Assembly: GCA_020630715.1 (NCBI GenBank)
Contig: JAHDIQ010000010.1
Location: 71,883-135,882, forward strand
Origin: Nonlabens sp.
GTDB taxonomy: Bacteria; Bacteroidota; Bacteroidia; Flavobacteriales; Flavobacteriaceae
Reading direction: 5' to 3'
DNA length: 64,000 bases
Below, piece after piece: positions 11,983 through 31,224 of this stretch. Each line of letters opens with the position of its first letter. Within the stretch, counting starts at the first letter, position 1. A program made the translations under genes and the position numbers. The notes beneath the pieces were generated by a model that saw only the letters and a list, made by a program, of their open reading frames with translations, was not told the origin of the DNA and made no database searches.

Positions 11983-12016
11983 TTGATATATCATGTTGAG
12001 TTTTTAGTTACATTTG
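11983..12016 (+). promoter_or_regulatory. Candidate promoter of the regulator gene (TTG at 11983-11985, -7 box TACATTTG at 12009-12016)
   Basis: Exact TAnnTTTG match. The TTG lies 23 nt upstream, slightly wider than the usual spacing. Confidence 0.3.
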
Positions 12017-14824
12017 AGAAACTCAACGATCTTGAAAAACCTAAACTTTTTATTCATTCTTATAGGTTTCTTTTTTCATTGCCATGCGCAAGAGTTACCA
12101 CCTACACAGTATTTTAATCCATCAGTCTATGAGGCTGGTAATCAAAACTGGATGATCGCAGAATCTGATGATCATCAAATTTATATAGCTAATAATAAAG
12201 GATTGTTAGTCTACAATGGAGCTCAGTGGAATCTCTATAAAACTCCTAATGAAAGCATCATGCGATCTGTAAAAATTGATGGTGATCGTGTTTATACAGG
12301 ATGTTATATGGATTTTGGTTACTGGGAAGCAAATGCTACTGGTAGGTTGTCCTATACATCAATTCTGGAACAAACTGGGTTTAGTGTTGAGGAAGATGAA
12401 CAATTCTGGAACATATCTGTTCAGGAGGATTATGTGCTTTTCCAGTCGTTATCCCATATTTATCTGTATGATAAAGAGAAAAATACTATTTCTCCTATCG
12501 TTCAGGATGTGACTATTCATAAATTCTTTACCGTAGAAAGTTCTTTTTATTATCAGGTATTAGGTGAAGGTTTGTATCAAGTTTCAAACGGTAATTCCCA
12601 ATTACTTAGTAGTCAGTCAATTATTAAGGATAAGCCAGTAGTTCATATGTTTGAGCAAAATGGGATGATTTATGTCGTTACAGAGGATTCGGCAATTTAT
12701 GCTCTTAAAGATGATAATGTATCATTGACTAGTAAGTTACAGTTTGATAAACCGGTAACTCTATATAGTGCAGAAGCCTTAGATGATGGGTCTTTATTAT
12801 TAGGAACCATATCCAGTGGCGTCATATCTTCAAATTTAGACGGTAGTGTTAATTACAGCATTAATCAGAATAGTGGATTGGGCAATAATACCTGTCTTTC
12901 TGTTTTTCAGGACAGTAAGAATAATATTTGGTTAGGACTAGATAACGGTTTGAGTTGTGTGAATCAAGATTCATCGTATTTGTTCTATAGAGATCGAGAC
13001 GGTAGTTTAGGAACCGTTTACGCATCTGCAAAATTTGAAAACAAAGTCTTTATAGGAACAAACCAAGGGCTGTTTTCAAAAAATGTCAACGAGAAAGAGT
13101 TTAATTTTATAGAAGGAAGTGCTGGACAAGTATGGTCATTAGATGTGATTGATAATACATTATTTTGCAGTCATAACCTAGGTCTATTTGCACTAGTAAA
13201 TGATCGTTTAGAGTTAGTACATAATACAGGTTCATGGCAAGTTCAGTCTGTACCTGGTAAAATAAATAGTGTACTAGTAGGATCTTATAAAGGCCTTTAT
13301 TTAATAGAGAAAAGAAATAATAGGTGGCAGTTTGAAACTTATGTAGAAGGTTTTAATATCAGTTCAAAGGATGTGGTTATTGAAAGTGATCAAACGGTAT
13401 ATGTAAACCATGAATATAAAGGTGTATTTAAATTAATACTGAATGACTCTTTAAATAAAGTGGTTACGAGTTCTGTAGTTGCTGAATTGCATAAAGGAAT
13501 AGGAAGTGATATGGCCTTATATGACGATGTGTTGTTTTATGCAAAACGAGATACCGTTTTCACAAAAAGCCGTTCTTCTGCTACATTTAGTTATGACCCA
13601 TTACTGAGTGAGCTTTTTAAATCTTCAGAATATACCTCAGGAAGCCTTGAAGTTTCTGGTAATTATTTATGGTGTTTTAATACTAATTACATTCATAGAA
13701 TTGAGTTTGAGGATATCAACGGAGATTATAAGATTAAAAAAATTAAGTATCCTAAAGTAGTAAGAAAGGAAAATACAGGTTATGAGAATTTAACCATGAT
13801 GACTCCTAAAACCTACTTGATAGGATCGTCCTTTGGTTACTCACTATTTGACGACTCTAAGGGTAATTTTGAAGAAGATTTAAACGTTTTTATTTCTAGT
13901 GCTAGTCATATAAAAGAGAATGATTTAAAAACGCTATCCCTTACAGAACCCGTAACTATAGATTACGAGGGAAGTAATATTCAAATTTCATATGCTGTAA
14001 ATAATTATGACGCCACGCGTGTAGTAGAATATCAGCATCAATTATTGAAAAATGATAAAGTAGTTAGTGGCTGGAGCGATTTGACAACTAGCAATACTGT
14101 ATCCTTTGAAAGTTTGCGTTTTGGTGATTATGAATTTGAGGTGCGTTTTAAGAAAATAGATGAGTCACTAAGTGATCCGGCAAGCTATTCATTTACCATA
14201 GGAAGACCTTATTATCTTACTAATACTGCGATCGTTATTTATATTATTCTTACGATACTGCTAGTTGCATTATTGAATGGCTTTTACATCTGGTACTTTA
14301 AGCGACAAAAGAAAAGAGCCCTACAAAAACAGCAAAAAGAATTAGAGTTGCAAAACCTTACTAATGAAAAGAATATCATTGAACTGCGTAATGCAAAACT
14401 ACGCAGTGATATAGAACATAGAAACAGAGAACTTGCCGTTTCAACCATGGCAATGATTAGAAAGAATGAAACTTTAAATGAGTTGAAGAACGAGTTACAA
14501 AAACTCCCTAAAGACAATGCAACCTCTTCACTTAAGAAAATGCTGGATAAAAATTTAAACAGCAAGCAGGATTGGATCACTTTTGAGGAAGCATTTAATA
14601 ATGCAGACAAGGATTTCTTTAAAAAGATCAAGGAGAAACATCCGTCTCTTTCTTCTGGCGATCTCAGACTATGTGTTTATTTAAGATTGAACTTATCATC
14701 AAAAGAAATTGCACCGCTTCTTAATATTTCTCCTAGAAGTGTAGAGATAAAGCGATATCGTTTGCGTAAAAAACTAGGTTTAACGCGTAATGATAGCCTT
14801 ACCAGTTACATTGTTGAGATTTAA
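12014..14824 (+). CDS. One-component transmembrane regulator: periplasmic beta-propeller-type sensor repeats + Y_Y_Y region + TM helix + coiled coil + C-terminal LuxR-type HTH
   Basis: 936 aa. Signal peptide, long repeat-rich sensor, TM segment TAIVIYIILTILLVALLNGFYIWYF, C-terminal LSSGDLRLCVYLRLNLSSKEIAPLLNISPRSVEIKRYRLRKKLGL. No kinase or receiver motifs seen. The start is ambiguous: the TTG at 12014 overlaps the putative -7 box, and the TTG at 12032 would give MKNLNFLFIL... Confidence 0.8.
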   Translation: MRNSTILKNLNFLFILIGFFFHCHAQELPPTQYFNPSVYEAGNQNWMIAESDDHQIYIANNKGLLVYNGAQWNLYKTPNESIMRSVKIDGDRVYTGCYMDFGYWEANATGRLSYTSILEQTGFSVEEDEQFWNISVQEDYVLFQSLSHIYLYDKEKNTISPIVQDVTIHKFFTVESSFYYQVLGEGLYQVSNGNSQLLSSQSIIKDKPVVHMFEQNGMIYVVTEDSAIYALKDDNVSLTSKLQFDKPVTLYSAEALDDGSLLLGTISSGVISSNLDGSVNYSINQNSGLGNNTCLSVFQDSKNNIWLGLDNGLSCVNQDSSYLFYRDRDGSLGTVYASAKFENKVFIGTNQGLFSKNVNEKEFNFIEGSAGQVWSLDVIDNTLFCSHNLGLFALVNDRLELVHNTGSWQVQSVPGKINSVLVGSYKGLYLIEKRNNRWQFETYVEGFNISSKDVVIESDQTVYVNHEYKGVFKLILNDSLNKVVTSSVVAELHKGIGSDMALYDDVLFYAKRDTVFTKSRSSATFSYDPLLSELFKSSEYTSGSLEVSGNYLWCFNTNYIHRIEFEDINGDYKIKKIKYPKVVRKENTGYENLTMMTPKTYLIGSSFGYSLFDDSKGNFEEDLNVFISSASHIKENDLKTLSLTEPVTIDYEGSNIQISYAVNNYDATRVVEYQHQLLKNDKVVSGWSDLTTSNTVSFESLRFGDYEFEVRFKKIDESLSDPASYSFTIGRPYYLTNTAIVIYIILTILLVALLNGFYIWYFKRQKKRALQKQQKELELQNLTNEKNIIELRNAKLRSDIEHRNRELAVSTMAMIRKNETLNELKNELQKLPKDNATSSLKKMLDKNLNSKQDWITFEEAFNNADKDFFKKIKEKHPSLSSGDLRLCVYLRLNLSSKEIAPLLNISPRSVEIKRYRLRKKLGLTRNDSLTSYIVEI

Positions 14825-15105: not shown

Positions 15106-18100
15106 ATGAAGAAAATTCTTCTAACAGTTATTGTAACCTTGATTACATCGACGTTTGTCCTAGGACAATCGCAAAATGTTAAAGTGGTTCAAAATGCAAG
15201 TGGTCACACCTTAACCGTAGATGGTAAGCCGTTTATGATTAACGGTATGAACTGGGATTATATTCCGGTAGGTGCTAACTACTCTTATGATTTCTGGTCT
15301 AAATCAGATACATTCATTAAAGCTGCTTTAGATTCAGAAATGTCTCTTTTGCAGAATATGAACGTAAATGTTATCAGAGTTTATACGGGAATACAACCTA
15401 AATGGGTGGAGTATATTTATGAGAAATATGGTATTTATACGATGTTAAACCATTCTTTTGGTAGATATGGATTAACTCTAGATGGAGTATGGATACCTAA
15501 CACGGAATATTCAAATCCTGCTGCAAGAAAGTTTTTACTAGCTGAAGCTACAAAAATGGTAAACGATTTTAAGGATACACCAGGTCTTTTAATGTTTATG
15601 TTAGGTAATGAAAATAATTACGGACTTTCCTGGGGTGGTGCTGCTACAGAAGATATTCCTATTGAAACGGAAGGTACGGTCATCACTCGTGCCAGAGCGA
15701 TGTACAAAGTGATGAATGAGGCAACTCTTGCCATGAAAAAGATAGATAGTTCACATCCTATAGCCATATGTAATGGTGACTTGTTGTATTTAGATCTAGT
15801 AAAAGAGCATTGTCCTGATATTGATATTTATGCTACTAATATGTATCGTGGGGTATCTTTTGGTGATGCATTTCAACGCGTTGCAGATGAGTTAGAGAAA
15901 CCTATTATGTTTTCAGAATTTGGTTCAGATGCCTTTAATGCTTTAAGCATGAAAGAAGATCAAAAGATGCAATCTTACTATGTAGTAAATAACTGGAAAG
16001 AGATTTACGCAAACGCAGCTGGTCTAGGAAAAGCAAATAACTCTATTGGTGGTTTCACCTTCCAGTTTAGTGATGGATGGTGGAAAGTAGGACAAACGAA
16101 AGATTTAGATATTCATAATTCAGATGCGGTATGGACAAGTGGTGGATATACCTTAGATACTGAGAATGGTTCAAAAAACATGAATGAAGAGTATTTTGGA
16201 ATATGTGCAAAAGGAAAGTCAGACGCACGTGGTCTATATACTTTGTATCCTAGAGCAGCATATTATGCTCTAAAGGATGTTCACAGTTTAAATCCTTACG
16301 GTGCTGGAATTGATGCCGCATTTGTGGATAATTACTTTGATGGGATTAATCTCATGGAATATGTTTTACAAGCACGTGGTGATAAGGCAGCGGCGGGAAC
16401 TGGTGGTGATGGTGAAATGTTACGTATAAGTAATTTAAGCGCACGCTTTACAACCTTTAATACTGGCGGGACTCTTATAACGACTCCTGATAATCAAGAT
16501 CCTACAGCTAATATTACACCTAATCAATTAGGCTTTGATCATATGCAATCCTACTTTGTAGGAGTCGAGGGAAAACCTGCCGCAAATATGAGAGCAAAGG
16601 TGGATTTAAACATTACCGGAAATGTAGCTCAAAACCCTATCGACGAAATATTCTATGAAAATAGAGCAAGACCAGTAATAGTTGAAGGAGCAAATGGTGA
16701 AGATGTTACTCTAATTGATAATAACCGTTTACAAGTCTATCAAGCAGAATTTGAATGGAATGCAAAAGAGTTTGATCTAAGAGGTTTTTATAGAACCGGT
16801 CACTACCATTGGGGTTATGAAGGTGATTTCTTTAACCTTTATCCAGAAGCAAATTATGGTCCTAATCTGGACATCTATGGAGGAGAAATTTTAGGAGCTG
16901 AGATAGATGGAAAGGGTGTTTTCCAAGGTTTAAAAGCAGCCGTAGGTCCACAATTATGGTGGGGCGCAAATCCTACGATGTTATTTAAATATAGAAAACA
17001 AATAGGTAAATGGGATGTAGCCGGTATTTATCACCGTGATTTTGATCGTAATACAGAATTTGATCCTATTACTGGTGCTCGAGTTATTGATCCAGTGCAA
17101 GCTCGTAGTGGTATTATACCACCATGGGCTACAGAGCGTGCGACTCTTGCAATTCAGAGAGACTTCGGGAAATTTGGTATTATGGTTGGTGGAATTTGGG
17201 GTGGAAGTCCTTTAAATGGATTAGCTTATCAGGATTTTACTGGTGAATCAGGCAATTATACTGTTTTTGAGGATAGAATTAATTCTAATGATAATTGGGG
17301 TGGAAAGGTAAAATTAACTTATGAAGGAGGAAGATTTAACTGGTATGGTCAGGCATCTGCTATGGGATTAGTAGCAAACGGTGGTGCAGATCAAACTCAA
17401 ACTTTCACAGGATGGAGATTAAAAGATAGTGGTAGTGGTAACATGACTAATGTATTATCTGGTTTCACCTATTCAATGGGAGATCTTCAAATTGCTCCTA
17501 ATTTTATGTGGCAAAAACCACTAGTAGATGCGATTCCTAATGATATCGACGGACCAGGAAGATTACGTAATGTAATAGATGATCCATTTGCAGTGAGAAA
17601 TGGTAATCGTGAAATGACAGCAGGTGAGATACTTTTAACTTATGATCCTACACCAGGAACCTGGATGTATCAATGGGATAACGATAGAGCCGAGGATGCA
17701 AAATTTGCAATGAACCTAGGTTTTGTATACCGTCACTTGCCTACAAATATGGATGCACACATAGGTTTCCTAGCAGATCGTACATTCTTTGCATTTCCTA
17801 CCGCTGCACCAGCAGAGGATTTATGGGAGATTAATTCTAGAATGGTCTCAAAATTAAATCCTGAACTTGGTCTTATTGCTAATATGTATTACGGTAATGG
17901 TCAGGCAAATGGTGACTCTGATAGAACGATTACTAGATATGGTGGAGATGTGAGAGCGATTTACAAGAATTTTAAATTAGAAACTCACGCTAGGTTTAAC
18001 GATTGGGGTCCATTTGATTATCATAGAGATTTCAACCTTACGTTTCCTTATCAATTTATGCTAGATATTTCAACAAGTTTAGGAAAACCTGACTGGTTTA

Positions 18101-18288
18101 TTCTACCTAGCACTCGTATAGGTCTAAGAGGAACCTTTAGAGGTTTAAATGAGTTCTCTCCTAGATTTGCGCCTGCTTCAATTCCTGCAGGTACATTTCC
18201 AGCGATTAACCCAGGAAGTGCCGTAGGATTCCCTAACGGATCTGAATGGGAAATCAGAACCTATGTTCACATAAATATTGGTCAATAA
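15106..18288 (+). CDS. Secreted fusion protein: N-terminal clan GH-A (GH2-C / GH158 / GH72-like) TIM-barrel glycosidase-like domain + ~620-aa beta-barrel-like C-terminal region
   Basis: 1060 aa. Signal peptide MKKILLTVIVTLITSTFVLGQ. LTVDGKPFMINGMNW, NVNVIRVY, MLGNENNYG (acid/base-like NE, ~15604-15618), MFSEFGSDAF (nucleophile-like E, ~15910-15924), FQFSDGWW. The C-terminal part is rich in alternating-hydrophobic strands (AKFAMNLGFVYRH, FKLETHARF, EWEIRTYVHINIGQ at the terminus). Confidence 0.6.
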   Translation: MKKILLTVIVTLITSTFVLGQSQNVKVVQNASGHTLTVDGKPFMINGMNWDYIPVGANYSYDFWSKSDTFIKAALDSEMSLLQNMNVNVIRVYTGIQPKWVEYIYEKYGIYTMLNHSFGRYGLTLDGVWIPNTEYSNPAARKFLLAEATKMVNDFKDTPGLLMFMLGNENNYGLSWGGAATEDIPIETEGTVITRARAMYKVMNEATLAMKKIDSSHPIAICNGDLLYLDLVKEHCPDIDIYATNMYRGVSFGDAFQRVADELEKPIMFSEFGSDAFNALSMKEDQKMQSYYVVNNWKEIYANAAGLGKANNSIGGFTFQFSDGWWKVGQTKDLDIHNSDAVWTSGGYTLDTENGSKNMNEEYFGICAKGKSDARGLYTLYPRAAYYALKDVHSLNPYGAGIDAAFVDNYFDGINLMEYVLQARGDKAAAGTGGDGEMLRISNLSARFTTFNTGGTLITTPDNQDPTANITPNQLGFDHMQSYFVGVEGKPAANMRAKVDLNITGNVAQNPIDEIFYENRARPVIVEGANGEDVTLIDNNRLQVYQAEFEWNAKEFDLRGFYRTGHYHWGYEGDFFNLYPEANYGPNLDIYGGEILGAEIDGKGVFQGLKAAVGPQLWWGANPTMLFKYRKQIGKWDVAGIYHRDFDRNTEFDPITGARVIDPVQARSGIIPPWATERATLAIQRDFGKFGIMVGGIWGGSPLNGLAYQDFTGESGNYTVFEDRINSNDNWGGKVKLTYEGGRFNWYGQASAMGLVANGGADQTQTFTGWRLKDSGSGNMTNVLSGFTYSMGDLQIAPNFMWQKPLVDAIPNDIDGPGRLRNVIDDPFAVRNGNREMTAGEILLTYDPTPGTWMYQWDNDRAEDAKFAMNLGFVYRHLPTNMDAHIGFLADRTFFAFPTAAPAEDLWEINSRMVSKLNPELGLIANMYYGNGQANGDSDRTITRYGGDVRAIYKNFKLETHARFNDWGPFDYHRDFNLTFPYQFMLDISTSLGKPDWFILPSTRIGLRGTFRGLNEFSPRFAPASIPAGTFPAINPGSAVGFPNGSEWEIRTYVHINIGQ

Positions 18289-18291
18289 AAG

Positions 18292-19764
18292 ATGCAAAAG
18301 ATGAAAAATATAATAACAAAAAGCAATTTAATCTACCTAATAGCTCTTGTGCTAGTGGTAGGTTGTGAGAGAGAATTGTCTGACGATGCGGTTTTAGCCT
18401 CTTTTCCTAAAAAAGGAGAAATATTTACAGATAACTTTGTAAGTATGGGAAGTGATTTTTACTTTCCTTTTGCTGATGCAAAACCAGATGTATTTTCTGT
18501 AGATATGGAAGAAGGTTATGAAAGTGATGCTTCTATACGCATAGATGTTCCTAACGCTAATGATCCTACTGGTGGTTATGCTGGTGCAATTTTTAGAACA
18601 GATGCTGGCCCTAGGGATTTAAGCGGTTTTGACGCACTAACTTTTTGGGCCAAAGCGTCCCAAGGAGTATCTATTGGTGAATTTGGTTTTGGGTTAGATT
18701 TTGAAGGTGATGTTCATAGAGCTTCCAGGTCTAATGTAAGCTTAAGTACTAGCTGGCAAAAAATCACAATCCCTATTCCAGATGCGTCAAAATTAACTCA
18801 GGAAAGAGGTATGTTCTGGTTTGCTGCAGGTACTCAAGGTACTGGTGGTAATGCTTATACTTTTTGGGTTGATGAAATACAGTTTGAAACTTTAGGAACT
18901 TTAAGACTTGAGAATCCATTTATTTTTGATGGACAGGATTTGTCTAGAGATGTTTTTATAGGAGAAGCAATCGCTTTTGAAAATGTAGGTGTTGTTTTTA
19001 ATTTAGAAAATGGTCAAAATGTTTCTGTTGTTGCTGCACCTGCATACTTTGATTTTGAAACAACTGATGCAACAGTTACTGGACCTATTGTGATTAACAA
19101 CGCTGGTCAAGCAGTAGCACCTATAATATCTAGTAACGGAACGGCCGTTTTAACAGCAACACTAGCTAACACGCTCGCGATGGGTTCATTTACCGTTAAT
19201 GCGGTAGGTGCCTTTCCTCATGCACCAGTTCCTAATAGACCAGCAGCTAATGTGGTTTCATTATTTAGTGATGCTTATGCAAATGTACCCGTTAGACATT
19301 ATAATGGATTTTTTGCACCTTTTCAAACTACCCAAGGTGGTGCTGGTTCAGATCCTAACAACGTAGATATTCAAGCACCATTTGCAAATGGAACACTAGA
19401 TAATATCATTAACTATACGTCATTCAATTTTGTTAGTATAGGAATGTATGAGACGGTATCGCTAGTTGATGTGAGTAGCGCAACTCATTTACATGTTGAC
19501 ATAAACATTAGAGAAAACGTAGATCCAGGAGATTTTATTAGGTTAGAATTAGAAAGTGGAACAGGTGGAACTACATCTGGCGGTTCTTTTACCTTAACCT
19601 CTGCGATGCTCAATAACGTAGATGCAAATGGATGGTTTAGTATGGATATTCCACTATCTAACTTCCCTGGATTTAATGACCCAGCTAACCTAGGTCAGGT
19701 ATTCTTTGTGTCGGATAATACCATTACAGACATTTGGGTAGATAATGTGTATTTCTACAACTAA
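18292..19764 (+). CDS. Surface lipoprotein with two CBM-like beta-sandwich domains and an Ig-like linker (candidate glycan-binding protein)
   Basis: 490 aa. Lipobox LVVGC. Starts 3 nt after the 15106 gene. YTFWVDEIQFETLG and ANVVSLFSDAYANVPV...IWVDNVYFYN are typical ends of carbohydrate-binding jelly-roll domains. Confidence 0.6.
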   Translation: MQKMKNIITKSNLIYLIALVLVVGCERELSDDAVLASFPKKGEIFTDNFVSMGSDFYFPFADAKPDVFSVDMEEGYESDASIRIDVPNANDPTGGYAGAIFRTDAGPRDLSGFDALTFWAKASQGVSIGEFGFGLDFEGDVHRASRSNVSLSTSWQKITIPIPDASKLTQERGMFWFAAGTQGTGGNAYTFWVDEIQFETLGTLRLENPFIFDGQDLSRDVFIGEAIAFENVGVVFNLENGQNVSVVAAPAYFDFETTDATVTGPIVINNAGQAVAPIISSNGTAVLTATLANTLAMGSFTVNAVGAFPHAPVPNRPAANVVSLFSDAYANVPVRHYNGFFAPFQTTQGGAGSDPNNVDIQAPFANGTLDNIINYTSFNFVSIGMYETVSLVDVSSATHLHVDINIRENVDPGDFIRLELESGTGGTTSGGSFTLTSAMLNNVDANGWFSMDIPLSNFPGFNDPANLGQVFFVSDNTITDIWVDNVYFYN

Positions 19765-19790: not shown

Positions 19791-20648
19791 ATGATGAACA
19801 TAAAATCAATATATACAGCAGTTAAGGGTTTATTTATTTTGAGTGTTGCGGCACTTTTAAATAGCTGTGAGGTAGACACTACCCAAACGGTGACGACTTT
19901 TGACAATTTAGTAATGTCAGATGAATTTAATGTAGACGGTGCGCCAGATAGTAATTTGTGGACTTATGACTTAGGCGATGGAACTTCAAATGGATTGCCA
20001 GCTGGCTGGGGAAATAATGAATTACAATACTACACAGATAGACCTGAGAATGTAAGTGTAGAAAACGGTTATCTACTTATCACAGCTAGAGAAGAAAGTT
20101 TTCAAGGATCATCCTATACATCTGCTAGATTAAAGACCCAAGGGTTGTTTGAACAAGCTTATGGTCGTTATGAAGCGCGTATAAAAGTGCCTTATGGACA
20201 AGGTTACTGGCCAGCATTCTGGTTACTAGGTAATGATTGTGATGTAAATATCTGGCCAGCATGTGGCGAGATTGATGTAATGGAATTTGTAGGCGATCAA
20301 CCTACAAAGGTATTCGGATCTGCCCATGGACCAGGTTTTAGTGGTGGAGAATCTATTTCAAAGGATTACGTCTTAGAAAATGGAAGATTTGATACAGAGT
20401 TTCACGTTTTTGGGATTGAGTGGTCACCAGATTACATTAACTATTATGTTGATGATGTGTTATACCAGCAAATTACCAGAGAAACCATTGCCGAAGAGAC
20501 CGATGGTGAAGGAGAATGGGTTTTTGATGGTCCATTTTATATCATTCTTAATGTAGCCATAGGTGGAGAACTTCCAGGATCACCTAATGCAGATACCATC
20601 TTTCCACAAACTATGCTCGTGGATTACGTAAGAGTATATCAAGAATAA
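19791..20648 (+). CDS. GH16 endo-beta-1,3-glucanase (laminarinase-type) lipoprotein
   Basis: 285 aa. Lipobox LLNSC. Catalytic GH16 motif GEIDVMEF (ExDxxE). WPAFWLLG. Confidence 0.9.
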   Translation: MMNIKSIYTAVKGLFILSVAALLNSCEVDTTQTVTTFDNLVMSDEFNVDGAPDSNLWTYDLGDGTSNGLPAGWGNNELQYYTDRPENVSVENGYLLITAREESFQGSSYTSARLKTQGLFEQAYGRYEARIKVPYGQGYWPAFWLLGNDCDVNIWPACGEIDVMEFVGDQPTKVFGSAHGPGFSGGESISKDYVLENGRFDTEFHVFGIEWSPDYINYYVDDVLYQQITRETIAEETDGEGEWVFDGPFYIILNVAIGGELPGSPNADTIFPQTMLVDYVRVYQE

Positions 20649-20692: not shown

Positions 20693-21469
20693 ATGAAAAC
20701 AACTTTAAAAAACTTTATAAAATCAGCTTTTATAGTAACGGTTATCGTGATGACCTATTCCTGCGAAAGCGAGGAACAGCTCGAGGAAATTCCACAATTA
20801 AAAGCTGGATTTACGCAAACAGTAGATCAAGGTAATGCTACGGTAAGTTTTATCAATACTTCTACAAATGTGGAAAGTTATTCATGGGATTTTGGTGATG
20901 GAACTACATCGACCTTAATTAATCCAGTAAAACAATACGACCTAGGAGGAACTTATACAGTTATACTAACGGTAACAAATGGTGACGCAACAGATACTTT
21001 TCAAGATGATATTTTCATAGAAGATATTTTTGATGGTGGACTGGTTGTGAATGGTGATTTTGAAAACGGCGCTGCGCCATGGATACAAGGTGTGGATGAT
21101 ACTAATCCAGCACCAGTCGTTACAGACGACGGTAATACTTATTATCAGGTAAATGTTACTAATCCTAATCCAGCACAACCATTTCTAGTGAATATGAGTC
21201 AGAAATTAGAAATTGTAAACGGTACAACGTACGTATTAACCTTTGATGCATGGTCTGATGTAAATAGAACCTTAATCGCTGGCATAGGATTAAGCAGTGG
21301 AACATTTGCAAATGATGTAGACACTGTTAATCTAACCACAACACAGCAAACCTTTCAATTAACGTTAACGGCTGGTGGTTTTGGCGCACCAGATGCACGC
21401 GTGTTATTTGATTCTAACGGTGCAGCTGGTTTGGTGAACATTGATAATGTGTCCTTAGTCGTTCAATAG
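20693..21469 (+). CDS. Lipoprotein with a PKD domain and a CBM4/9-like carbohydrate-binding domain
   Basis: 258 aa. Lipobox TYSC. PKD signature YSWDFGDGTTS...GGTYTVILTVTNG. Then LVVNGDFENGAAPW, typical of a CBM4_9 N-terminus. Confidence 0.7.
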   Translation: MKTTLKNFIKSAFIVTVIVMTYSCESEEQLEEIPQLKAGFTQTVDQGNATVSFINTSTNVESYSWDFGDGTTSTLINPVKQYDLGGTYTVILTVTNGDATDTFQDDIFIEDIFDGGLVVNGDFENGAAPWIQGVDDTNPAPVVTDDGNTYYQVNVTNPNPAQPFLVNMSQKLEIVNGTTYVLTFDAWSDVNRTLIAGIGLSSGTFANDVDTVNLTTTQQTFQLTLTAGGFGAPDARVLFDSNGAAGLVNIDNVSLVVQ

Positions 21470-21668: not shown

Positions 21669-24600
21669 ATGAGTATAACAAATCTCCATATAGGAACTCA
21701 AAAAGCCCGTTTTCATAACTCCGAAATCACTGGTGAAGTAGTAATGATCAATAACGAAAGTTATTATCATATTGAAAATTACGACATGATGCGTCCATTT
21801 TTTATGAGCATCGTAAGTAATTCTGATCACTGGATGTTTATCTCTAGCAACGGTGGCGTAAGTGCTGGTCGTAAGAATAGTGATAATGCTATTTTCCCTT
21901 ACTATACAGATGATAAAATTACAGAACTAGCGCATACGACTGGTAGCAAAACGATCATTAGAGTAAAAGATGGTGATACTTTAAAATTGTGGGAACCTTT
22001 TAGCGATCGTTATACAGGGATTTATAATATCTCACGTGATTTATATAAGAGTAATTTAGGGAATAAGATTATTTTCCAGGAACATAATAAGGACCTCAAT
22101 CTTACTTTTAAATATCAGTGGAATAGTAGTGATATCTACGGCTTTATAAAAAAATCAGAATTGATCAATCATAATGAGCATGACGTCCATTGTGAGATCC
22201 TAGATGGGATGCAGAACATACTACCATCTGGTGTAGGAGAAGATTTGCAAAAAGCATCTAGTAACCTAGTAGATGCATACAAGCGTACAGAATTACAAGA
22301 AAAATCAGGAATAGGAATTATAGCCTTAAGTGCTATCATCGTTGATAAAGCAGAACCTAGCGAGGCATTAAAAGCAAATTTAGCCTGGTCCATAGGTGTT
22401 GAAAATCCTATTCATTTAGTTTCTAGCTTACAATTAAATAATTTTAGAAAAGGATTATCAGTAGTTCAAGAAACAGATGTAAAGGCAGAAAAAGGAGCAT
22501 ATTTTACAGTTGAAGAAGCAACCATATCTTCAAATACATCTAAAAAATGGATGTATGCCATAAACGTTAACCAGTCTATGGTAGATGTAGCACAGCTAGC
22601 TCATGAATTAACAGATGCTCATTCTTTACAACAACGTGTAGAAGATGATATCAAAAAAGGCAGTTTAAACCTTAGAAACCTCACCGCAGCAGCAGATGGT
22701 TTACAAGTTACAGATGATGCTTTGACAAACAATAGGCATTTTGCAAACACCTTATTTAATATTATGCGAGGTGGTATTTTTGATGATAATTATCGCATTG
22801 AAAAAGACGATTTCTTAAAATATATAAAAGCAGCAAATAATACTGTATATAAGGATCAATTAACGGTTTTAGAATCTTTACCTAGTTTATTTAATTTAGA
22901 TCATTTACACACGGTTGCTGCTACTAATACTGATCTTGATTTTAAGAGACTGTGCATTGAATACCTACCGCTTAAATTTAGCCGCAGGCATGGTGATCCT
23001 AGTCGTCCATGGAATAAATTTTCTATAAATACACGTAGCGAAGTTGATGGATCTAAGATCTTAGACTATGAAGGAAACTGGCGTGATATTTTCCAAAATT
23101 GGGAAGCGCTAGCTCATTCTTATCCTGAATTTATGGAAGGAATGATTCATAAGTTTTTAAACGCTTCTACCTTTGATGGATATAATCCTTACCGTGTTAC
23201 AAAAGGTGGTTTTGACTGGGAAGTGATTGAAGAAGATGATCCATGGTCATACATAGGATATTGGGGTGATCATCAGATCATCTACCTATTGAAATTTCTA
23301 GAATTCATAAAAGAATCAGATCCGGTAAAACTTAAAGCACTAAGTGATCAGGAATTATTTGTCTACGCAAATGTTCCTTACACGATTAAACCGTATGAGC
23401 AGATTTTAGAAAATTCTAAGGACACCATAGATTTTAATCATGCACAACAGGAATTAATAGAACAACGTAGAGCAACGATAGGAGTAGATGGTGCTTTAGT
23501 TCAGGATGCTAATCATAACATTTATAGAGTAAACTTTATTGAAAAATTACTGGCTACTGTTCTCGCCAAAGTCTCTAACCTCATTCCAGAAGCAGGAATA
23601 TGGTTAAATACACAACGTCCAGAATGGAATGATGCAAATAATGCATTAGTAGGTAATGGCGTTTCTATGGTCACCTTATATTACTTAAGAAGATTCTTAA
23701 GTTTTATGCAGGATTACCTAGCACAGTTAGAACAATCAGAAGTTGCTATTTCTGCAGAATTACAGCAAATGTTCTCGGGAATGTTAGCAACATTACAACA
23801 ATACCACGGTTTACTTTCTGGAGCTATTAGTGATCAAGATCGTCGCACTATTTTAGACGGTTTATCACAACCAGCTAGTGATTATCGCGAGCGTATTTAC
23901 TCGCATTCTTTCTCTGGTGATAAAACTGCCATTTCTATAAGTGATATCTCATCATTTGTAGCTATTACCTTAGATTATTTAGATCATAGTATCGTTGCAA
24001 ACCGCAGGAATGATGGAATGTACCATGCTTACAATTTAATGACTGTAGAAGATAATGGTGAGGTAAGTATATCTTACTTACCAGAAATGCTAGAAGGTCA
24101 GGTTGCTGTTTTAAGTGCTGGTAGTTTAACACCTGAACAATCACTAGAAGTAATGGATGGATTGAAAGCCAGTGCGTTATTCCGACCAGATCAGTATAGT
24201 TATATCCTATATCCAGAGAAGCAGCTACTAGGTTTTGAAGAAAAGAACATCATACCGCAAGAGCTGGTGAGTGGTTCAAAACTATTGACGCAATTACTAG
24301 CAGATGGTAATCACAGTATAGTAGTTCAAAATAGAGATGGAGAATACCATTTTAATAGTAGTTTCAATAATGTAAAAAGCTTGAAAAAAGCCTTAAATGT
24401 TCTTGAAGGTACGAAGTATGAATCATTAGCAACGCAAGAACGCAAGCAGTTAGAACGCAGTTTTGAAACCGTTTTTAATCATAAAGCATTTACGGGTAGA
24501 TCAGGAACATTCTTTGGTTATGAAGGACTAGGATCTATTTACTGGCACATGGTTTCTAAATTAGTACTAGCGGTTCAAGAAAGTAGTTTAAGAGCGATGG

Positions 24601-25139
24601 ATCAAGGTGCTAGTGATGAAGTCATAGGTAGAATGTTAGATCATTACTATGAGATGCAAGCTGGAATAGGAGTTCATAAATCGCCAGAATTATACGGTGC
24701 CGTTCCTACAGATCCCTATTCACATACACCAGCCACAAAAGGTGCCCAGCAACCAGGAATGACTGGTCAGGTAAAGGAAGATATCCTAAGTCGCATAGGC
24801 GAATTAGGTGCTTTTATTAAGGATGGTAAGTTGACATTTAAGCCTAGATTGTTAAGAAAACAGGAGTTTTTAAGTAGCTCAAAAAACTTTACATATGTAG
24901 ATGTAAACGGTGAAACGCATACCATCGAATTATCTGTAGGATCACTGGCTTTTACCTATGCACAAGTGCCTGTTATCTATAAAATGTCTAGTCGTGCTGG
25001 AGTTACGATTCATTTGACAAATGGTGAAACGGTAGCATCTGATGATCACGCAATAGATACTTCTTTAAGTAAGGAGATTTTTAATCGCACGCATCAGGTA
25101 AAAATGATTGAAGTAAACATAAATGACGGGTTAAAGTAA
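21669..25139 (+). CDS. Large cytoplasmic GH94-clan-like glycoside phosphorylase candidate (beta-1,3-glucan phosphorylase, GH149-like)
   Basis: 1156 aa with no signal peptide. EGNWRDIFQNW (~23079-23102) and PEWNDANNALVG (23622-23633 encodes EWND) resemble the RDxxQD and DWND catalytic-centre motifs I recall from GH94 phosphorylases. FTGRSGTFFGYEGLGSIYWH resembles a phosphate-binding loop. The size and genomic context fit GH149. Needs an HMM check. Confidence 0.5.
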   Translation: MSITNLHIGTQKARFHNSEITGEVVMINNESYYHIENYDMMRPFFMSIVSNSDHWMFISSNGGVSAGRKNSDNAIFPYYTDDKITELAHTTGSKTIIRVKDGDTLKLWEPFSDRYTGIYNISRDLYKSNLGNKIIFQEHNKDLNLTFKYQWNSSDIYGFIKKSELINHNEHDVHCEILDGMQNILPSGVGEDLQKASSNLVDAYKRTELQEKSGIGIIALSAIIVDKAEPSEALKANLAWSIGVENPIHLVSSLQLNNFRKGLSVVQETDVKAEKGAYFTVEEATISSNTSKKWMYAINVNQSMVDVAQLAHELTDAHSLQQRVEDDIKKGSLNLRNLTAAADGLQVTDDALTNNRHFANTLFNIMRGGIFDDNYRIEKDDFLKYIKAANNTVYKDQLTVLESLPSLFNLDHLHTVAATNTDLDFKRLCIEYLPLKFSRRHGDPSRPWNKFSINTRSEVDGSKILDYEGNWRDIFQNWEALAHSYPEFMEGMIHKFLNASTFDGYNPYRVTKGGFDWEVIEEDDPWSYIGYWGDHQIIYLLKFLEFIKESDPVKLKALSDQELFVYANVPYTIKPYEQILENSKDTIDFNHAQQELIEQRRATIGVDGALVQDANHNIYRVNFIEKLLATVLAKVSNLIPEAGIWLNTQRPEWNDANNALVGNGVSMVTLYYLRRFLSFMQDYLAQLEQSEVAISAELQQMFSGMLATLQQYHGLLSGAISDQDRRTILDGLSQPASDYRERIYSHSFSGDKTAISISDISSFVAITLDYLDHSIVANRRNDGMYHAYNLMTVEDNGEVSISYLPEMLEGQVAVLSAGSLTPEQSLEVMDGLKASALFRPDQYSYILYPEKQLLGFEEKNIIPQELVSGSKLLTQLLADGNHSIVVQNRDGEYHFNSSFNNVKSLKKALNVLEGTKYESLATQERKQLERSFETVFNHKAFTGRSGTFFGYEGLGSIYWHMVSKLVLAVQESSLRAMDQGASDEVIGRMLDHYYEMQAGIGVHKSPELYGAVPTDPYSHTPATKGAQQPGMTGQVKEDILSRIGELGAFIKDGKLTFKPRLLRKQEFLSSSKNFTYVDVNGETHTIELSVGSLAFTYAQVPVIYKMSSRAGVTIHLTNGETVASDDHAIDTSLSKEIFNRTHQVKMIEVNINDGLK

Positions 25140-25204: not shown

Positions 25205-26473
25205 ATGAGATACATAAGCAACATAGTGATTTTAATGCTATTACTAGTAGCATGTAAACCTGTTGCGCCAGATGCTCAAGAAACTAATAAAGAATTGCAA
25301 ATGAACGCAAGTGATATTTTATCTAATCCTGATTATGTAGCAATATCCTACGGTGGTTATAGAGGTGTTTCTAGAGATGAACAACCTACTATTAAAGAAT
25401 TGAAAGAAGATTTAAGAATCATGCACGCAATGGGAATACGAGTCTTGCGTACCTATAACATGCAGTTACCGCATGCTACAAATGTGGTTAAAGCGATATC
25501 CCAATTAAAAGAAAATGATGCCGAGTTTGAAATGTACGTGATGCTAGGCGCATGGATTGATTGTAAAAATGCATGGACCGGTTTACCGGTAGACCACTAT
25601 ATAGAAAGTGAACAAAATGCTGATGAGATCGCGAGAGCAGTTGCGTTAACTAATGAGTATCCTGATATTATTAAAATCATAGCCGTAGGAAATGAGGCTA
25701 TGGTTAAATGGGCAACTAGTTATTACGTCCAGCCAGATGTGATTTTAAAATGGGTGAACCATTTACAGGATTTAAAAAAGAACAACAAACTGGCAAAAGA
25801 TACCTGGATCACAAGTTCAGATAACTTTGCTTCATGGGGTGGAGGCGATTCATTGTATCACGTTCCAGCTTTAGAGGAGTTAATAAGAGCTGTGGACTAT
25901 CTATCGGTTCATACGTATCCCATGCACGATACGCATTACAATCCAGTTTTTTGGGGTGTGAATGAAGATGAAACTCAACTATCAAAGAAAAAGCAAATTG
26001 CCAAAGCCATGTCCAGATCCAGAGATTATGCGATGGCTCAATATGATAGTGTTGTGCGATACATGCACAGTCTAGGTGTTAAAAAACAAGTTCATATAGG
26101 AGAAACTGGATGGGCTAGTTATTCTAATGGACATTATGGTGATAACGGTTCTAAAGCAACAGATGAGTATAAGTTAGGATTATATTATCAATTGATGCGT
26201 GAGTGGACTAAGGACAAAAACATTGCTTGTTTCTATTTTGAAGCTTTTGATGAACAGTGGAAGGATGCGGGAAATCCGCAGGGATCTGAAAATCATTTTG
26301 GACTGATTAATCTTAAATCACAAGCAAAATATCCATTGTGGTCGCTAGTAGATCGTGGCGTTTTTGATAGTTTGAAACGCGATGGAAAACGTATTGCAAA
26401 AACCTATGGAGGGAATTTAAATAGCCTGCTTCAGGATGTGAAATTACCACCAGTTAAAATTATGGCTCACTAA
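25205..26473 (+). CDS. GH17 beta-1,3-glucanase lipoprotein
   Basis: 422 aa. Lipobox LLVAC. IAVGNEAMV (acid/base) and HIGETGWAS (nucleophile), typical of GH17. Confidence 0.75.
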   Translation: MRYISNIVILMLLLVACKPVAPDAQETNKELQMNASDILSNPDYVAISYGGYRGVSRDEQPTIKELKEDLRIMHAMGIRVLRTYNMQLPHATNVVKAISQLKENDAEFEMYVMLGAWIDCKNAWTGLPVDHYIESEQNADEIARAVALTNEYPDIIKIIAVGNEAMVKWATSYYVQPDVILKWVNHLQDLKKNNKLAKDTWITSSDNFASWGGGDSLYHVPALEELIRAVDYLSVHTYPMHDTHYNPVFWGVNEDETQLSKKKQIAKAMSRSRDYAMAQYDSVVRYMHSLGVKKQVHIGETGWASYSNGHYGDNGSKATDEYKLGLYYQLMREWTKDKNIACFYFEAFDEQWKDAGNPQGSENHFGLINLKSQAKYPLWSLVDRGVFDSLKRDGKRIAKTYGGNLNSLLQDVKLPPVKIMAH

Positions 26474-27969
26474 TGAAAAACTTGAATCCTTCTATTTATT
26501 TAATCATAGCTTCATTCCTTATGAGTTGCGAGAACAAATTACCAGAATTAGATACTACGATATATGAAACATCTGCCGCTGGTAACCAACTAACGGTAGT
26601 TTCAGATTTTGAACCTTTAGATTCTGTTACCGTAGTAAGCTTAAATGAAGAAAAAACATATCAAAAAATTACGGGTTTTGGCGGCGCATTTACAGAGTCT
26701 TCTGCCTATTTACTAAATCGATTAAGTAAAGAAAATCGCAATGAAATTTTAGAAGCCTATTTTTCTGAAGATGGAGCAAATTATTCTTTAACACGCACAC
26801 ACATGAATAGTTGTGATTTCTCATTATCACAATATTCTTATGCAGCTGTTCCAGATGATATGGAGTTGAGAAACTTTACGGTAGAAGAAGACCGTGAGGA
26901 TTTAATCCCTATGATTAAAGACGCTATGGCGATTTCAAAAGATGGTTTTAAACTATTTGCATCACCGTGGACAGCACCACCATGGATGAAAGATAATAAT
27001 GAATGGGTAGGCGGTAAATTATTACCAGAATATTACGACACATGGGCATTGTTCTTTTCAAAATACATCGAAGCTTACCGGGAAGAAGGAATTGAATTAT
27101 GGGGTTTTACTGTAGAGAATGAACCACACGGAAATGGGAACAACTGGGAAAGTATGCACTACACGCCAGAAGAGATGACCACTTTTGTGCAGCACCATCT
27201 AGGACCTCACTTAGAAGAAAAAGGTTACGGCGATAAAATCATTCTAGGATATGATCAGAATAGAGCAGGAATTAAAGAATGGGTAGATGTCATGTACGCC
27301 ACACCAGAATCTTCAAAATATTATGACGGTACCGCAATTCACTGGTATGAAAGCACCTATGAAATCTTTGCAGATGATCTACAATATGCACATGAAAAAG
27401 CACCAGATAAATATCTGATTGAAACAGAAGGTTGTGTGGATAGTGAAGTCCCAGCATGGAAAGATGATGCATGGTACTGGAAAAAAGAAGCTACAGATTG
27501 GGGCTGGGATTGGGCTCCAGAGGAACAAAAATATTTACATCCTAAATATGCGCCGGTAAATAGGTACGCACGTGATATCATAGGTTGCATGAATAATTGG
27601 GTAGACGGCTGGGTAGACTGGAATATGGTACTGGATAAACAAGGTGGACCTAACTGGTTTAAGAACTGGTGTGCTGCGCCAGTAATCGTAGATCCAGATA
27701 TTGATGAGGTGTATTACACACCATTATATTATGTGATGGCTCACTTTAGTAAGTTCATACGTCCTGATGCAACGGTTATAGATGTTCAATCTACAGATGA
27801 TGACCTACAAATTACGGCAGCCATAAATCCTGATGGTACTACCGCTGTTGTGGTTTTTAATGAAGGAATGGAAAAGAAGTCCTTTGAATTACGCTTTCGC
27901 GAAAGCGTAACTACCATCAACATCGATGCACAAGCGTTACAAACAATAATGATACCAACTAAAAAATAA
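26473..27969 (+). CDS. GH30 glycosidase (beta-1,6-glucanase / glucosylceramidase family) lipoprotein
   Basis: 498 aa. Lipobox FLMSC. GFGGAFTES, FTVENEPHG (acid/base), YLIETEGC (nucleophile). TAATG overlap with the upstream gene. Contains palindrome copy 27889..27910. Confidence 0.85.
   Translation: MKNLNPSIYLIIASFLMSCENKLPELDTTIYETSAAGNQLTVVSDFEPLDSVTVVSLNEEKTYQKITGFGGAFTESSAYLLNRLSKENRNEILEAYFSEDGANYSLTRTHMNSCDFSLSQYSYAAVPDDMELRNFTVEEDREDLIPMIKDAMAISKDGFKLFASPWTAPPWMKDNNEWVGGKLLPEYYDTWALFFSKYIEAYREEGIELWGFTVENEPHGNGNNWESMHYTPEEMTTFVQHHLGPHLEEKGYGDKIILGYDQNRAGIKEWVDVMYATPESSKYYDGTAIHWYESTYEIFADDLQYAHEKAPDKYLIETEGCVDSEVPAWKDDAWYWKKEATDWGWDWAPEEQKYLHPKYAPVNRYARDIIGCMNNWVDGWVDWNMVLDKQGGPNWFKNWCAAPVIVDPDIDEVYYTPLYYVMAHFSKFIRPDATVIDVQSTDDDLQITAAINPDGTTAVVVFNEGMEKKSFELRFRESVTTINIDAQALQTIMIPTKK
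27889..27910. repeat. Palindrome family copy 8 (perfect 22-bp palindrome TTACGCTTTCGCGAAAGCGTAA)
   Basis: Inside the GH30 CDS. Read as L-R-F-R-E-S-V. Confidence 0.95.
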
Positions 27970-30315: not shown

Positions 30316-31224
30316 ATGTCACATAGAAAAGACCATTATTTTAACCCATCTCAAATTGCTTCTATATCAGAAAAAGGACTGGACGTAAGTGCATATACTT
30401 CTGATGATTTAAAAGCATTATGGAGATCCACTATAGAAAAAGGTGTACATGGAATCTGTTTTAGTATGTATGAAGATGGTCAAGAACCAGGTGACCATAT
30501 CTCAAGAGAACAAGTAGAACGTCGCGTTAAGATTTTAAAACCATATACTAAATGGATACGTTCTTTCTCTTGTATTGAAGGTAATGAGTACGTACCTGAA
30601 TACGCCCATAAACATGGCATGAAAACATTAGTAGGTGCATGGTTAAGTGATGATAAGGAAAAGAATGAGCAGGAAATTGAAGCTTTAATTGAACTTGCTA
30701 AAAAGGGATATGTCAACATTGCAGCTGTAGGGAATGAAGTGATGTATAGAGATGAGCTTACAGAGCAAGAGCTTATTGATTATATTAATAAAGTAAAAAA
30801 AGCATTACCAGAAATTCCTGTAGGATATGTAGATGCATATTATGAATTTACCTCTAGGCCAGCAATTACTCAAGCTTGTGATGTGATTCTTACAAATTGT
30901 TATCCTTTCTGGGAAGGTTGTCCTATTGAATATGGTTTAAATCACATGAATGAAATGTTTCATCAGGCACTAAGCGCTGACTCATCTAAGAAAGTTATTA
31001 TAACAGAAACAGGATGGCCTAATCAAGGAGAAAGCTTTAAAGGCTCTCATCCATCTGATGTTAATGCGATGAAATATTTTATCGATACCCAAAAATGGTG
31101 CGAACACAATAACATAGACTGTTTTTACTTTTCATCTTTTGATGAATCCTGGAAAAAAGGAGATGAAGGTGAAGTAGGAGCTTTTTGGGGATTATGGGAT
31201 AAACATGAACAATTGAAGTTTTAA
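30316..31224 (+). CDS. Cytoplasmic GH17-family protein (no signal peptide)
   Basis: 302 aa. AAVGNEVM, IITETGWPNQG, FYFSSFDESWK. Collinear, roughly half-identical by eye, to residues ~510-779 of the upstream fusion. Starts 2 nt after it. Confidence 0.8.
   Translation: MSHRKDHYFNPSQIASISEKGLDVSAYTSDDLKALWRSTIEKGVHGICFSMYEDGQEPGDHISREQVERRVKILKPYTKWIRSFSCIEGNEYVPEYAHKHGMKTLVGAWLSDDKEKNEQEIEALIELAKKGYVNIAAVGNEVMYRDELTEQELIDYINKVKKALPEIPVGYVDAYYEFTSRPAITQACDVILTNCYPFWEGCPIEYGLNHMNEMFHQALSADSSKKVIITETGWPNQGESFKGSHPSDVNAMKYFIDTQKWCEHNNIDCFYFSSFDESWKKGDEGEVGAFWGLWDKHEQLKF

Follow-up and report, generated by a model that had tools for sequence, protein, structure and literature searches.

How does laminarin cross the outer membrane when a laminarin locus encodes neither SusC nor SusD? 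This question is raised by a 64 kb stretch of Nonlabens sp. DNA (contig JAHDIQ010000010.1, positions 71,883 to 135,882), called the window here; it sets the scope of all statements on the locus, and coordinates are window positions. Its gene cluster belongs to the laminarin loci described from marine Flavobacteriia as 'variant B / type 1' (PMC6298971, PMC10108472). Laminarin ranks among the largest oceanic carbon fluxes (PMC7104365), blooms show high expression of polysaccharide utilization loci (PULs) of this type (PMC10108472), and laminarin uptake by Bacteroidota has been explained, and measured in metaproteomes, almost entirely via SusC/SusD (PMC6298971). In tblastn searches with genuine laminarin-type SusC/SusD from related loci, no SusC/SusD was found in the window. 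No TonB-dependent receptor is encoded there and the remaining large open reading frames (ORFs) are housekeeping genes. The sole outer-membrane candidate is the 1060-aa product of an ORF at 15106-18288 (+ strand, ATG start), termed the fusion protein below. An ORF for a 490-aa lipoprotein (18292-19764, + strand, ATG start) follows after 3 nt. The original prediction, made from the DNA sequence alone, had singled out this pair and its spacing, both of which were confirmed. We propose, with a probability of roughly 0.55, that the fusion protein is a TonB-independent channel for laminarin whose exit carries a glucanase on the periplasmic side, and that the lipoprotein is its surface partner with carbohydrate-binding modules (CBMs).

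The C-terminal region of the fusion protein (residues 439-1060; 16420..18285, + strand) contains 11.3% Gly and no Cys, and hydrophobic runs of five or more residues are absent. The strand-like peptides quoted in the original prediction are all present and the C-terminal end is EWEIRTYVHINIGQ. An exhaustive HMMER search for homologues returned 482 clusters at 50% identity, stand-alone barrels included. Sixteen members were scanned against Pfam with E values up to 10 and no family could be assigned to the barrel domain; at the same limit it matched none of the sugar porin families LamB, OprB and KdgM. Plug, TonB-receptor barrel and CarboxypepD_reg signatures were likewise missing from the fusion protein and 16 barrel homologues in Pfam (E up to 10), while all of these are seen in genuine SusC proteins of related loci. 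This agrees with the earlier claim that the protein works without TonB machinery. No NCBIfam model matched the domain. A profile of the barrel searched against the PDB gave nothing credible, the only match being a ribosomal protein (E 1.6).

The fold was predicted with AlphaFold2 (AF2). A first run on 41 close homologues (at least 68% identity) gave a predicted local distance difference test (pLDDT) score of 58.8; this model was used for secondary structure only and already showed long antiparallel hairpins. With a diverse alignment of 58 sequences (down to 23% identity) the pLDDT was 86.6. In this model residues 439-1059 form an unbroken antiparallel meander with strands of 7-17 residues, in which turns of 2-3 residues alternate with loops of 20-37 residues; the pLDDT is about 61 at residues 430-440. 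A Foldseek search with the barrel part matched BtuB3 (8p98, 1.3e-8), the C. jejuni major outer membrane protein MOMP (5ldv, 2.4e-8) and the FimD usher (3rfz, 2.9e-7). The strand order was also examined by mean-field direct coupling analysis (mfDCA) on 345 non-identical sequences (effective number 167), using the strand columns only (of 630). Antiparallel coupling with z >1.5 (range 1.5-12.3) was found in 23 of the 25 sequence-adjacent strand pairs; S11-S12 and S13-S14 were uncoupled. S11-S14 is the top non-adjacent pair (z about 8), and S12 and S13 couple solely with each other. Residues 707-724 are therefore read as a side hairpin and the barrel as having 24 strands. At a minimum register of 7 or 9 residues, the last strand couples best with the penultimate one (0.272) and next with strand 1 (0.241), the latter being the pairing that a closed barrel requires; this first-last signal is modest. 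Complete distant homologues end in β-signals (...FTYSF, ...YSSISY, ...YLNIKW, ...YMHVGL). The long loops are highly conserved and aromatic-rich (GHYHWGYEGDFF, LWWGANP, DDPFAVRNGNRE, DPTPGTWMYQWDNDRAEDA, NDWGPFDYHRDF), and the loop motifs DDPFAV..NRE and DPTPGTW..WDND..EDA are also near-invariant. AF2, Foldseek and coevolution agree on a large outer-membrane β-barrel and not on GH2-type immunoglobulin (Ig)-like domains, as originally predicted; the model shows a barrel-type meander and not a chain of β-sandwiches, with closure not seen directly. An outer-membrane barrel is highly probable on these models, and the fusion protein would accordingly be located in the outer membrane.

The N-terminal part of the fusion protein bears out the first description. 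It begins with a type I signal peptide (MKKILLTVIVTLITSTFVLG, residues 1-20, 15106..15165, + strand; cleavage VLG/QSQ), assigned by eye and forming a helix at residues 2-18 in the model. The following ~400 aa (domain at residues ~23-400, 15172..16305, + strand) form a clan GH-A TIM barrel with both the GNEN and the SEFG motif. In Pfam the protein matches GH2_C alone (PF02836, E 1.5e-8, 34.6 bits), which accounts for the public names 'GH2 TIM barrel-domain containing protein', 'glycosidase' and 'beta-galactosidase'. Structural and profile comparisons point instead to glycoside hydrolase (GH) family 158. The sole match of the single sequence in the PDB by phmmer is the GH158 structure 9oro (E 5.4e-4). 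The family profile against the PDB gave BuGH158 6pal at 5.1e-11, 9oro at 4.1e-10 and the best GH2 at 5.8e-5, and GH158 structures take the first six places in the Foldseek search with the model (9p26 at 4.1e-14, 6pal at 1.3e-11), above GH2. The predicted acid/base E169 (GNEN; 15610-15612, + strand) and nucleophile E271 (SEFG; 15916-15918, + strand) align with GNES and TEFG of 9oro. Both are invariant among close homologues, and of 39 fused homologues, with identities as low as ~27%, 36 retain them. It is very likely, judging from sequence and motif conservation, that this domain is an active GH158-like glucanase.

Some fused homologues depart from this plan. Three of the 39 lack one or both catalytic Glu (S/D at 169; S/T/G at 271) and keep the barrel, and in some lineages the barrel may have a role independent of catalysis. 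In two distant fused homologues an additional region precedes the GH158-like domain and the barrel: a second TIM-barrel-like region in P0126 (1351 aa) and a CBM-like region in P0233 (1218 aa). These extra modules indicate that the periplasmic/N-terminal part is modular.

On which side of the membrane does the glucanase lie? The strand count is even (24) and all turns of 2-3 residues fall at even-to-odd strand junctions, so that strand 1 begins on the side on which the C-terminus lies. In canonical outer-membrane proteins the termini and tight turns are on the periplasmic side. Stand-alone gammaproteobacterial barrels (570-600 aa) carry a signal peptide that directly precedes their counterpart of strand 1. 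This marks the barrel as an autonomous unit and not a passenger-export device. In the fusion protein the glucanase is connected to strand 1 by two short helices (residues 404-429) and a Gly-rich linker of ~10 residues, AAGTGGDGEM (16315..16419, + strand, by DSSP of the AF2 model). From the turn pattern, the even strand number, the short linker and the stand-alone barrels, the modelled GH158 domain is probably periplasmic. The surface glucanase in an autotransporter-like passenger-then-barrel arrangement that had been hypothesized first is not borne out by this topology, by the 24 strands or by the barrel homologues without a passenger.

The partner lipoprotein has a lipobox (VVGC; LVVGC/ERELSDD) with an acidic stretch after the Cys. 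Such acidic stretches resemble the surface-export signal of Bacteroidota lipoproteins. The GH16 (C/EVD) and PKD-domain (C/ESEEQ) lipoproteins of the locus are similar; the GH17 lipoprotein has C/KPV. The N-terminal module gave a CBM_11 match (E 2e-3, 18.6 bits, below the 27-bit cut-off), and the family profile matched the CBM30 structures 1wmx and 2c24 at a sub-threshold E of 3e-3. Homologues contain a central Big_2 Ig-like domain. A phmmer search of the lipoprotein against the PDB found nothing, and the Pfam signatures SusD_RagB and SusD-like_3 are absent from the 490-aa protein. Of the two CBM-like jelly-rolls that had been expected, the N-terminal one is thus CBM11/CBM30-like below threshold, and the C-terminal module gave no nameable match; the lipobox stands. 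Public names include 'carbohydrate-binding protein'. In 75 of 76 loci the gene right after the fusion gene encodes a homologue of the lipoprotein; this upholds the predicted barrel-lipoprotein pairing, and the two proteins would form a physical complex.

The gene pair is widespread. In a genome scan with one genome per species, at least 587 species carry the fusion protein. Locus context was compared in the best 80 loci, found with the close-homologue alignment; all are from Bacteroidota (61-78% identity), mostly Flavobacteriaceae plus Saprospiraceae and Lewinellaceae. Of the 80, 57 have a regulator homologue upstream of the fusion gene; among the 69 loci with enough upstream sequence it is the direct neighbour in 39. 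A GH16 gene follows within 4.5 kb in 71 of 72 loci. SusC co-occurrence was counted in the 51 loci with at least 9 kb on both sides. No SusC was found within 9-10 kb in 35 of them, 27 of which have the regulator directly adjacent, as in the window. When SusC/SusD are present, they usually lie between the regulator and the fusion gene: the order regulator-SusC-SusD-surface glycan-binding protein (SGBP)-fusion was confirmed by Pfam in L023 and L024, and tblastn indicated a regulator-SusC/SusD-fusion layout in the other loci with upstream SusC. The pair therefore does sit 'where SusC/SusD would be', as had been stated, and in the window the fusion gene comes straight after the regulator. Median identities across loci are 66% for the fusion protein, 67% for GH30, 41% for the lipoprotein and 40% for the regulator; the fusion protein is among the most conserved locus products. 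The same SusCD-less arrangement can be seen, uncommented, in Muricauda/Flagellimonas, with the gene termed a GH2 β-glycosidase (PMC13188888; L002 in our set).

Gammaproteobacterial homologues provide a second context. Stand-alone barrels with their own signal peptides adjoin ATP-binding cassette (ABC) sugar importers and GH16 in three loci (L084, L085, L088). One of these, in Marinobacterium sp. xm-a-152 (L088; WBYI01000005.1, 3159-13258), encodes SBP_bac_5, two permeases, two ATPases, LacI, a 577-aa barrel and a 502-aa GH16, and looks like a complete TonB-independent uptake system for β-glucan oligosaccharides, as judged from its gene content. Fused forms occur among GH16, GH3, GH30, a GH149-sized protein and an ABC importer in L089, and among GH16, a transporter of the major facilitator superfamily (MFS), GH30 and GH1 in L090. 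TonB receptors were not found within 10 kb in any of these five loci; three further loci (L003, L086, L087) are on short contigs with little context. Related gammaproteobacterial barrels (40-45% mutual identity) are found both fused and unfused. In sugar channels of the lamB/malE type the genes for the outer-membrane barrel, a periplasmic binding protein and an ABC importer likewise go together. The occurrence of stand-alone barrels in binding-protein/ABC/GH16 operons fits a channel function.

A lipoprotein gene follows the barrel gene in Proteobacteria too, whether the barrel is fused or stands alone. Lipoproteins of 216-270 aa are encoded directly downstream of the barrel gene at L086:3728-4396, L089:13099-13749 and L090:13171-13983, and the protein encoded after the barrel gene at L001:5971-7206 has a related N-terminal region. 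They share the motifs LPTD..LYCP and DDAPSAKSR.YLW, the copies are 40-46% identical, and no Pfam match was found for them. The barrel-plus-lipoprotein pairing thus recurs across phyla. A comparison by hhalign showed no relation of this protein to the flavobacterial CBM lipoprotein (probability 1.7%). Its size is near that of LptE.

These findings can be assembled into a route. The surface lipoproteins (the 490-aa CBM protein, the PKD protein and GH16) would bind and nick laminarin. A glucan chain would then enter the 24-strand barrel, where the near-invariant aromatic-rich loops probably form the path or a gate. At the periplasmic exit the tethered GH158 domain would cleave the chain and prevent back-diffusion, acting as a sink or ratchet that replaces TonB energy. 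The GH17 and GH30 lipoproteins would trim the fragments, the MFS-GH17 fusion would carry them inward, and cytoplasmic GH149 would degrade them by phosphorolysis. Passage of the substrate through the barrel and directionality from hydrolysis are what this scheme would require of the protein; a channel for β-1,3-glucan is favoured, with some reserve. A broader view is doubtful for now: that the system represents a new class of polysaccharide importer, in which a plug-free, TonB-independent 24-strand barrel and its lipoprotein, with a possibly processive periplasmic GH158 pulling and cutting laminarin, would be the main laminarin route replacing SusC/SusD in most marine Flavobacteriaceae carriers, while the enzyme-free form would serve gammaproteobacterial ABC importers.

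Several observations weigh against the periplasmic-glucanase channel. The predicted template modelling score (pTM) of the AF2 model is 0.60. The S1-S26 coupling, in a 13-residue antiparallel register, ranks no higher than the top 2-4% of the background from non-adjacent pairs. In the window protein and its close relatives the last strand is amphipathic, but the end is a non-aromatic ...INIGQ or ...INIGK. A 24-strand barrel would need occlusion by some filling element. The characterised BuGH158 is a surface enzyme. Laminarin-type SusC lies beside the gene pair in 16 of the 51 loci (15 upstream, one downstream), and another laminarin SusCD may be present elsewhere in the Nonlabens genome, outside the window. 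In Formosa agariphila a GH158 gene is within a SusCD-containing, laminarin-induced PUL (preprint 10.64898/2026.01.10.698779). The original claim of a substitute for SusC/SusD was therefore too strong in its strict form, as the 16 loci carry both; the absence of SusC/SusD does hold for most loci and for the entire window.

The loci with SusC/SusD beside the pair would also suit a barrel that serves as an anchor or scaffold, keeping the lipoprotein and the glucanase, be it periplasmic or on the surface, close to the actual importer. This would be SusC/SusD in the loci that have them, or else a porin or TonB receptor encoded at another place. Such an importer could be encoded outside the 64 kb window, and the pore of the barrel is a predicted one. 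We consider this unlikely. A region of 620 residues with near-invariant loop motifs (GHYHWGYEGDFF, WWGANP and others) is excessive for an anchor, the enzyme-free barrels head or sit inside ABC sugar-uptake operons, and 35 of the 51 loci have no SusC within 9-10 kb.

A surface location of the enzyme would make the GH158 domain an endo-laminarinase displayed through or beside its own barrel in the manner of an autotransporter, with the barrel importing the products. The order of enzyme and barrel in the polypeptide is the right one for this, the helices at residues 404-429 before strand 1 could in principle span the pore, and the surface location of BuGH158 would fit. This possibility appears rather improbable, a shade more so than the anchor, since the barrel has 24 strands, not 12, and Pfam scans of the fusion protein and barrel homologues gave no autotransporter domain signature. 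Passenger-free homologous barrels carry a signal peptide only, and the fusion is also found in Gammaproteobacteria. In addition, a folded TIM barrel of ~400 aa is unlikely as a self-exported passenger, and a surface-type GH16 lipoprotein is already present in the locus.

That the C-terminal region is instead a chain of soluble β-sandwich domains of a GH2-like periplasmic or secreted glycosidase, as the Pfam and NCBI annotations ('GH2 TIM barrel-domain containing protein', 'beta-galactosidase') and the treatment of the gene as a GH2 β-glycosidase in Muricauda (PMC13188888) would have it, is very improbable, because GH2 N-terminal sugar-binding and Ig domains gave no matches (the TIM barrel begins ~20 residues past the signal peptide), GH158 scores far above GH2, the model is a single next-neighbour antiparallel meander matching membrane barrels, neighbouring strands are coupled all round and, weakly, the first with the last, and homologues have C-terminal β-signals and stand-alone forms with signal peptides. 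Export of an exopolysaccharide (periplasmic hydrolase plus porin, cf. Psl, Pel and alginate) was also considered and was rejected; the locus is a laminarin-induced catabolic one with importers.

The tethered channel with a periplasmic glucanase, which we prefer, is embedded in a cluster of co-directional genes (+ strand) in the order BguR-like regulator, fusion gene, lipoprotein gene, GH16, PKD, GH149, GH17, GH30, MFS-GH17 and GH17-like. The regulator (12014..14824) is a BguR-type membrane-spanning one-component protein with a β-propeller/Y_Y_Y sensor, a transmembrane (TM) segment and a LuxR-type helix-turn-helix (weak Pfam matches to Reg_prop, Y_Y_Y, GerE and Sigma70_r4_2). A BguR-type regulator was shown to activate the F. 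agariphila laminarin PUL (preprint 10.64898/2026.01.10.698779). The window ORF starts with TTG as listed and its first residues resemble a signal or TM segment; the 281-nt gap between it and the fusion gene presumably carries a regulated promoter. Downstream of the pair, a GH16 laminarinase-type lipoprotein (19791..20648; Pfam GH16 1.3e-25; N-terminus LLNSC/EVD) is probably surface-exposed and is followed by a PKD-domain lipoprotein (20693..21469; PKD_4 1.8e-15; MTYSC/ESEEQ). The GH149 β-1,3-glucan phosphorylase (21669..25139) has no signal peptide and would be cytoplasmic; this 1156-aa protein has zero Pfam matches despite 1749 bits in NCBIfam (NF058639). GH3 takes the place of GH149 in some related loci (e.g., L002; also PMC13188888). 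A GH17 lipoprotein (25205..26473; Pfam 7e-9; LLVAC/KPV) and a GH30 lipoprotein of the β-1,6-glucanase type (26473..27969; Pfam 9.7e-80; assigned with its N-terminus) come next. The 779-aa inner-membrane MFS sugar transporter (27974..30313; MFS_2 1.1e-62) has a C-terminal GH17 domain (1.5e-13), a fusion type reported earlier in Formosa (PMC6246565). The last cluster gene, starting 2 nt further on (30316..31224), encodes a GH17-like protein of 302 aa without a signal peptide (Pfam GH17 1.3e-11). As assigned from the N-termini, the locus supplies surface-type lipoproteins as well as periplasmic, inner-membrane and cytoplasmic steps. The next gene past the cluster (31496-32785) encodes 429 aa that include a C-terminal sorting domain for type IX secretion; in 6 of the 80 loci a weak homologue of it (27-33% identity) is encoded close to the cluster.

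A full-text literature search found no description of a membrane barrel on the fusion protein, and neither the joining of a glucanase to a barrel nor the family of stand-alone barrels came up in it. In the literature and databases the gene is known only as a locus component, 'GH0', 'GH2' or 'GH158'. The PUL map of F. agariphila shows a GH158 gene and a 'hypothetical protein' with CBM103-like modules (preprint 10.64898/2026.01.10.698779), which we read as putative orthologues of the window pair. The barrel domain defines a new outer-membrane protein family common to Bacteroidota and Gammaproteobacteria, and in its fused form heads laminarin loci that mostly lack SusC/SusD. If the barrel is a channel, Bacteroidota would possess a TonB-independent route of glycan import, some of the laminarin uptake would escape surveys that look at PULs and SusC/D expression, and an enzyme placed on a channel would be a new way of making passive import directional.

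The fusion protein can be compared with several known systems. GH158 endo-β-1,3-glucanases (BuGH158, 6pal; the processive GH158(Pro), 9oro/9p25; PMC13195107, PMC7157763) share with its N-terminal domain the clan GH-A TIM barrel, the aligned NE acid/base and (T/S)E(F/W)G nucleophile motifs and the occurrence in β-1,3-glucan utilization loci. The family includes dissociative endo-enzymes and one endo-processive enzyme (PMC13195107). Identity to the fusion domain is only ~15%. BuGH158 has an Ig-like C-terminal domain where the fusion protein has a membrane barrel of 620 residues, and the characterised enzymes have a lipoprotein signal, unlike the signal-peptidase-I signal here. The likely periplasmic position of the fused glucanase also differs from the surface position of BuGH158.

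SusC/SusD pairs resemble the window pair in gene order, an outer-membrane barrel gene followed by a gene for a glycan-binding lipoprotein, and in opening a catabolic locus that is specific for a substrate and has its own regulator. The window barrel has no plug, TonB box or CarboxypepD_reg extension, 24 strands instead of 22, no sequence relation to SusC and, unlike SusC, a fused enzyme domain; its lipoprotein is a CBM/Ig β-protein whereas SusD is like tetratricopeptide repeats (TPR-like). About a third of the loci encode true SusC/SusD in addition to the pair. Type Va autotransporters (e.g., the esterase EstA) also combine an N-terminal enzyme and a C-terminal outer-membrane barrel in one polypeptide. 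They differ in having 12 strands instead of 24, and the fusion protein has no autotransporter signature, has passenger-free homologues and has a topology that favours a periplasmic enzyme. LptD/LptE and the ushers FimD/PapC are barrels of 24-26 strands with an N-terminal periplasmic domain that export lipopolysaccharide (LPS) or pili. They resemble the fusion protein in the very large barrel and the N-terminal periplasmic domain, and LptD/LptE also in the dedicated lipoprotein partner. There is no sequence relation to LptD or the ushers, and the fusion gene belongs to a catabolic import locus rather than to LPS or pilus export.

LamB with MalE/MalFGK, ChiP, CymA and KdgM are substrate-specific sugar channels with periplasmic acceptors and are independent of TonB. 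The passive passage of oligo- or polysaccharides proposed for the window barrel and the conserved aromatic-rich loops are features of this type, and the stand-alone homologues have, as lamB has in malE, the gene of a periplasmic binding protein next to them, together with an ABC importer. The window barrel shows no homology to them. It is a single larger barrel (24 strands versus 12-18), a covalent hydrolase replaces or precedes the binding protein, and the locus also encodes a partner lipoprotein. Outer-membrane channels specific for a substrate are well known as such; a family with 24 strands, a lipoprotein partner and a hydrolase fused on the periplasmic side, as predicted here from the model in a phylum whose glycan route is taken to be SusC/SusD, appears to be new.

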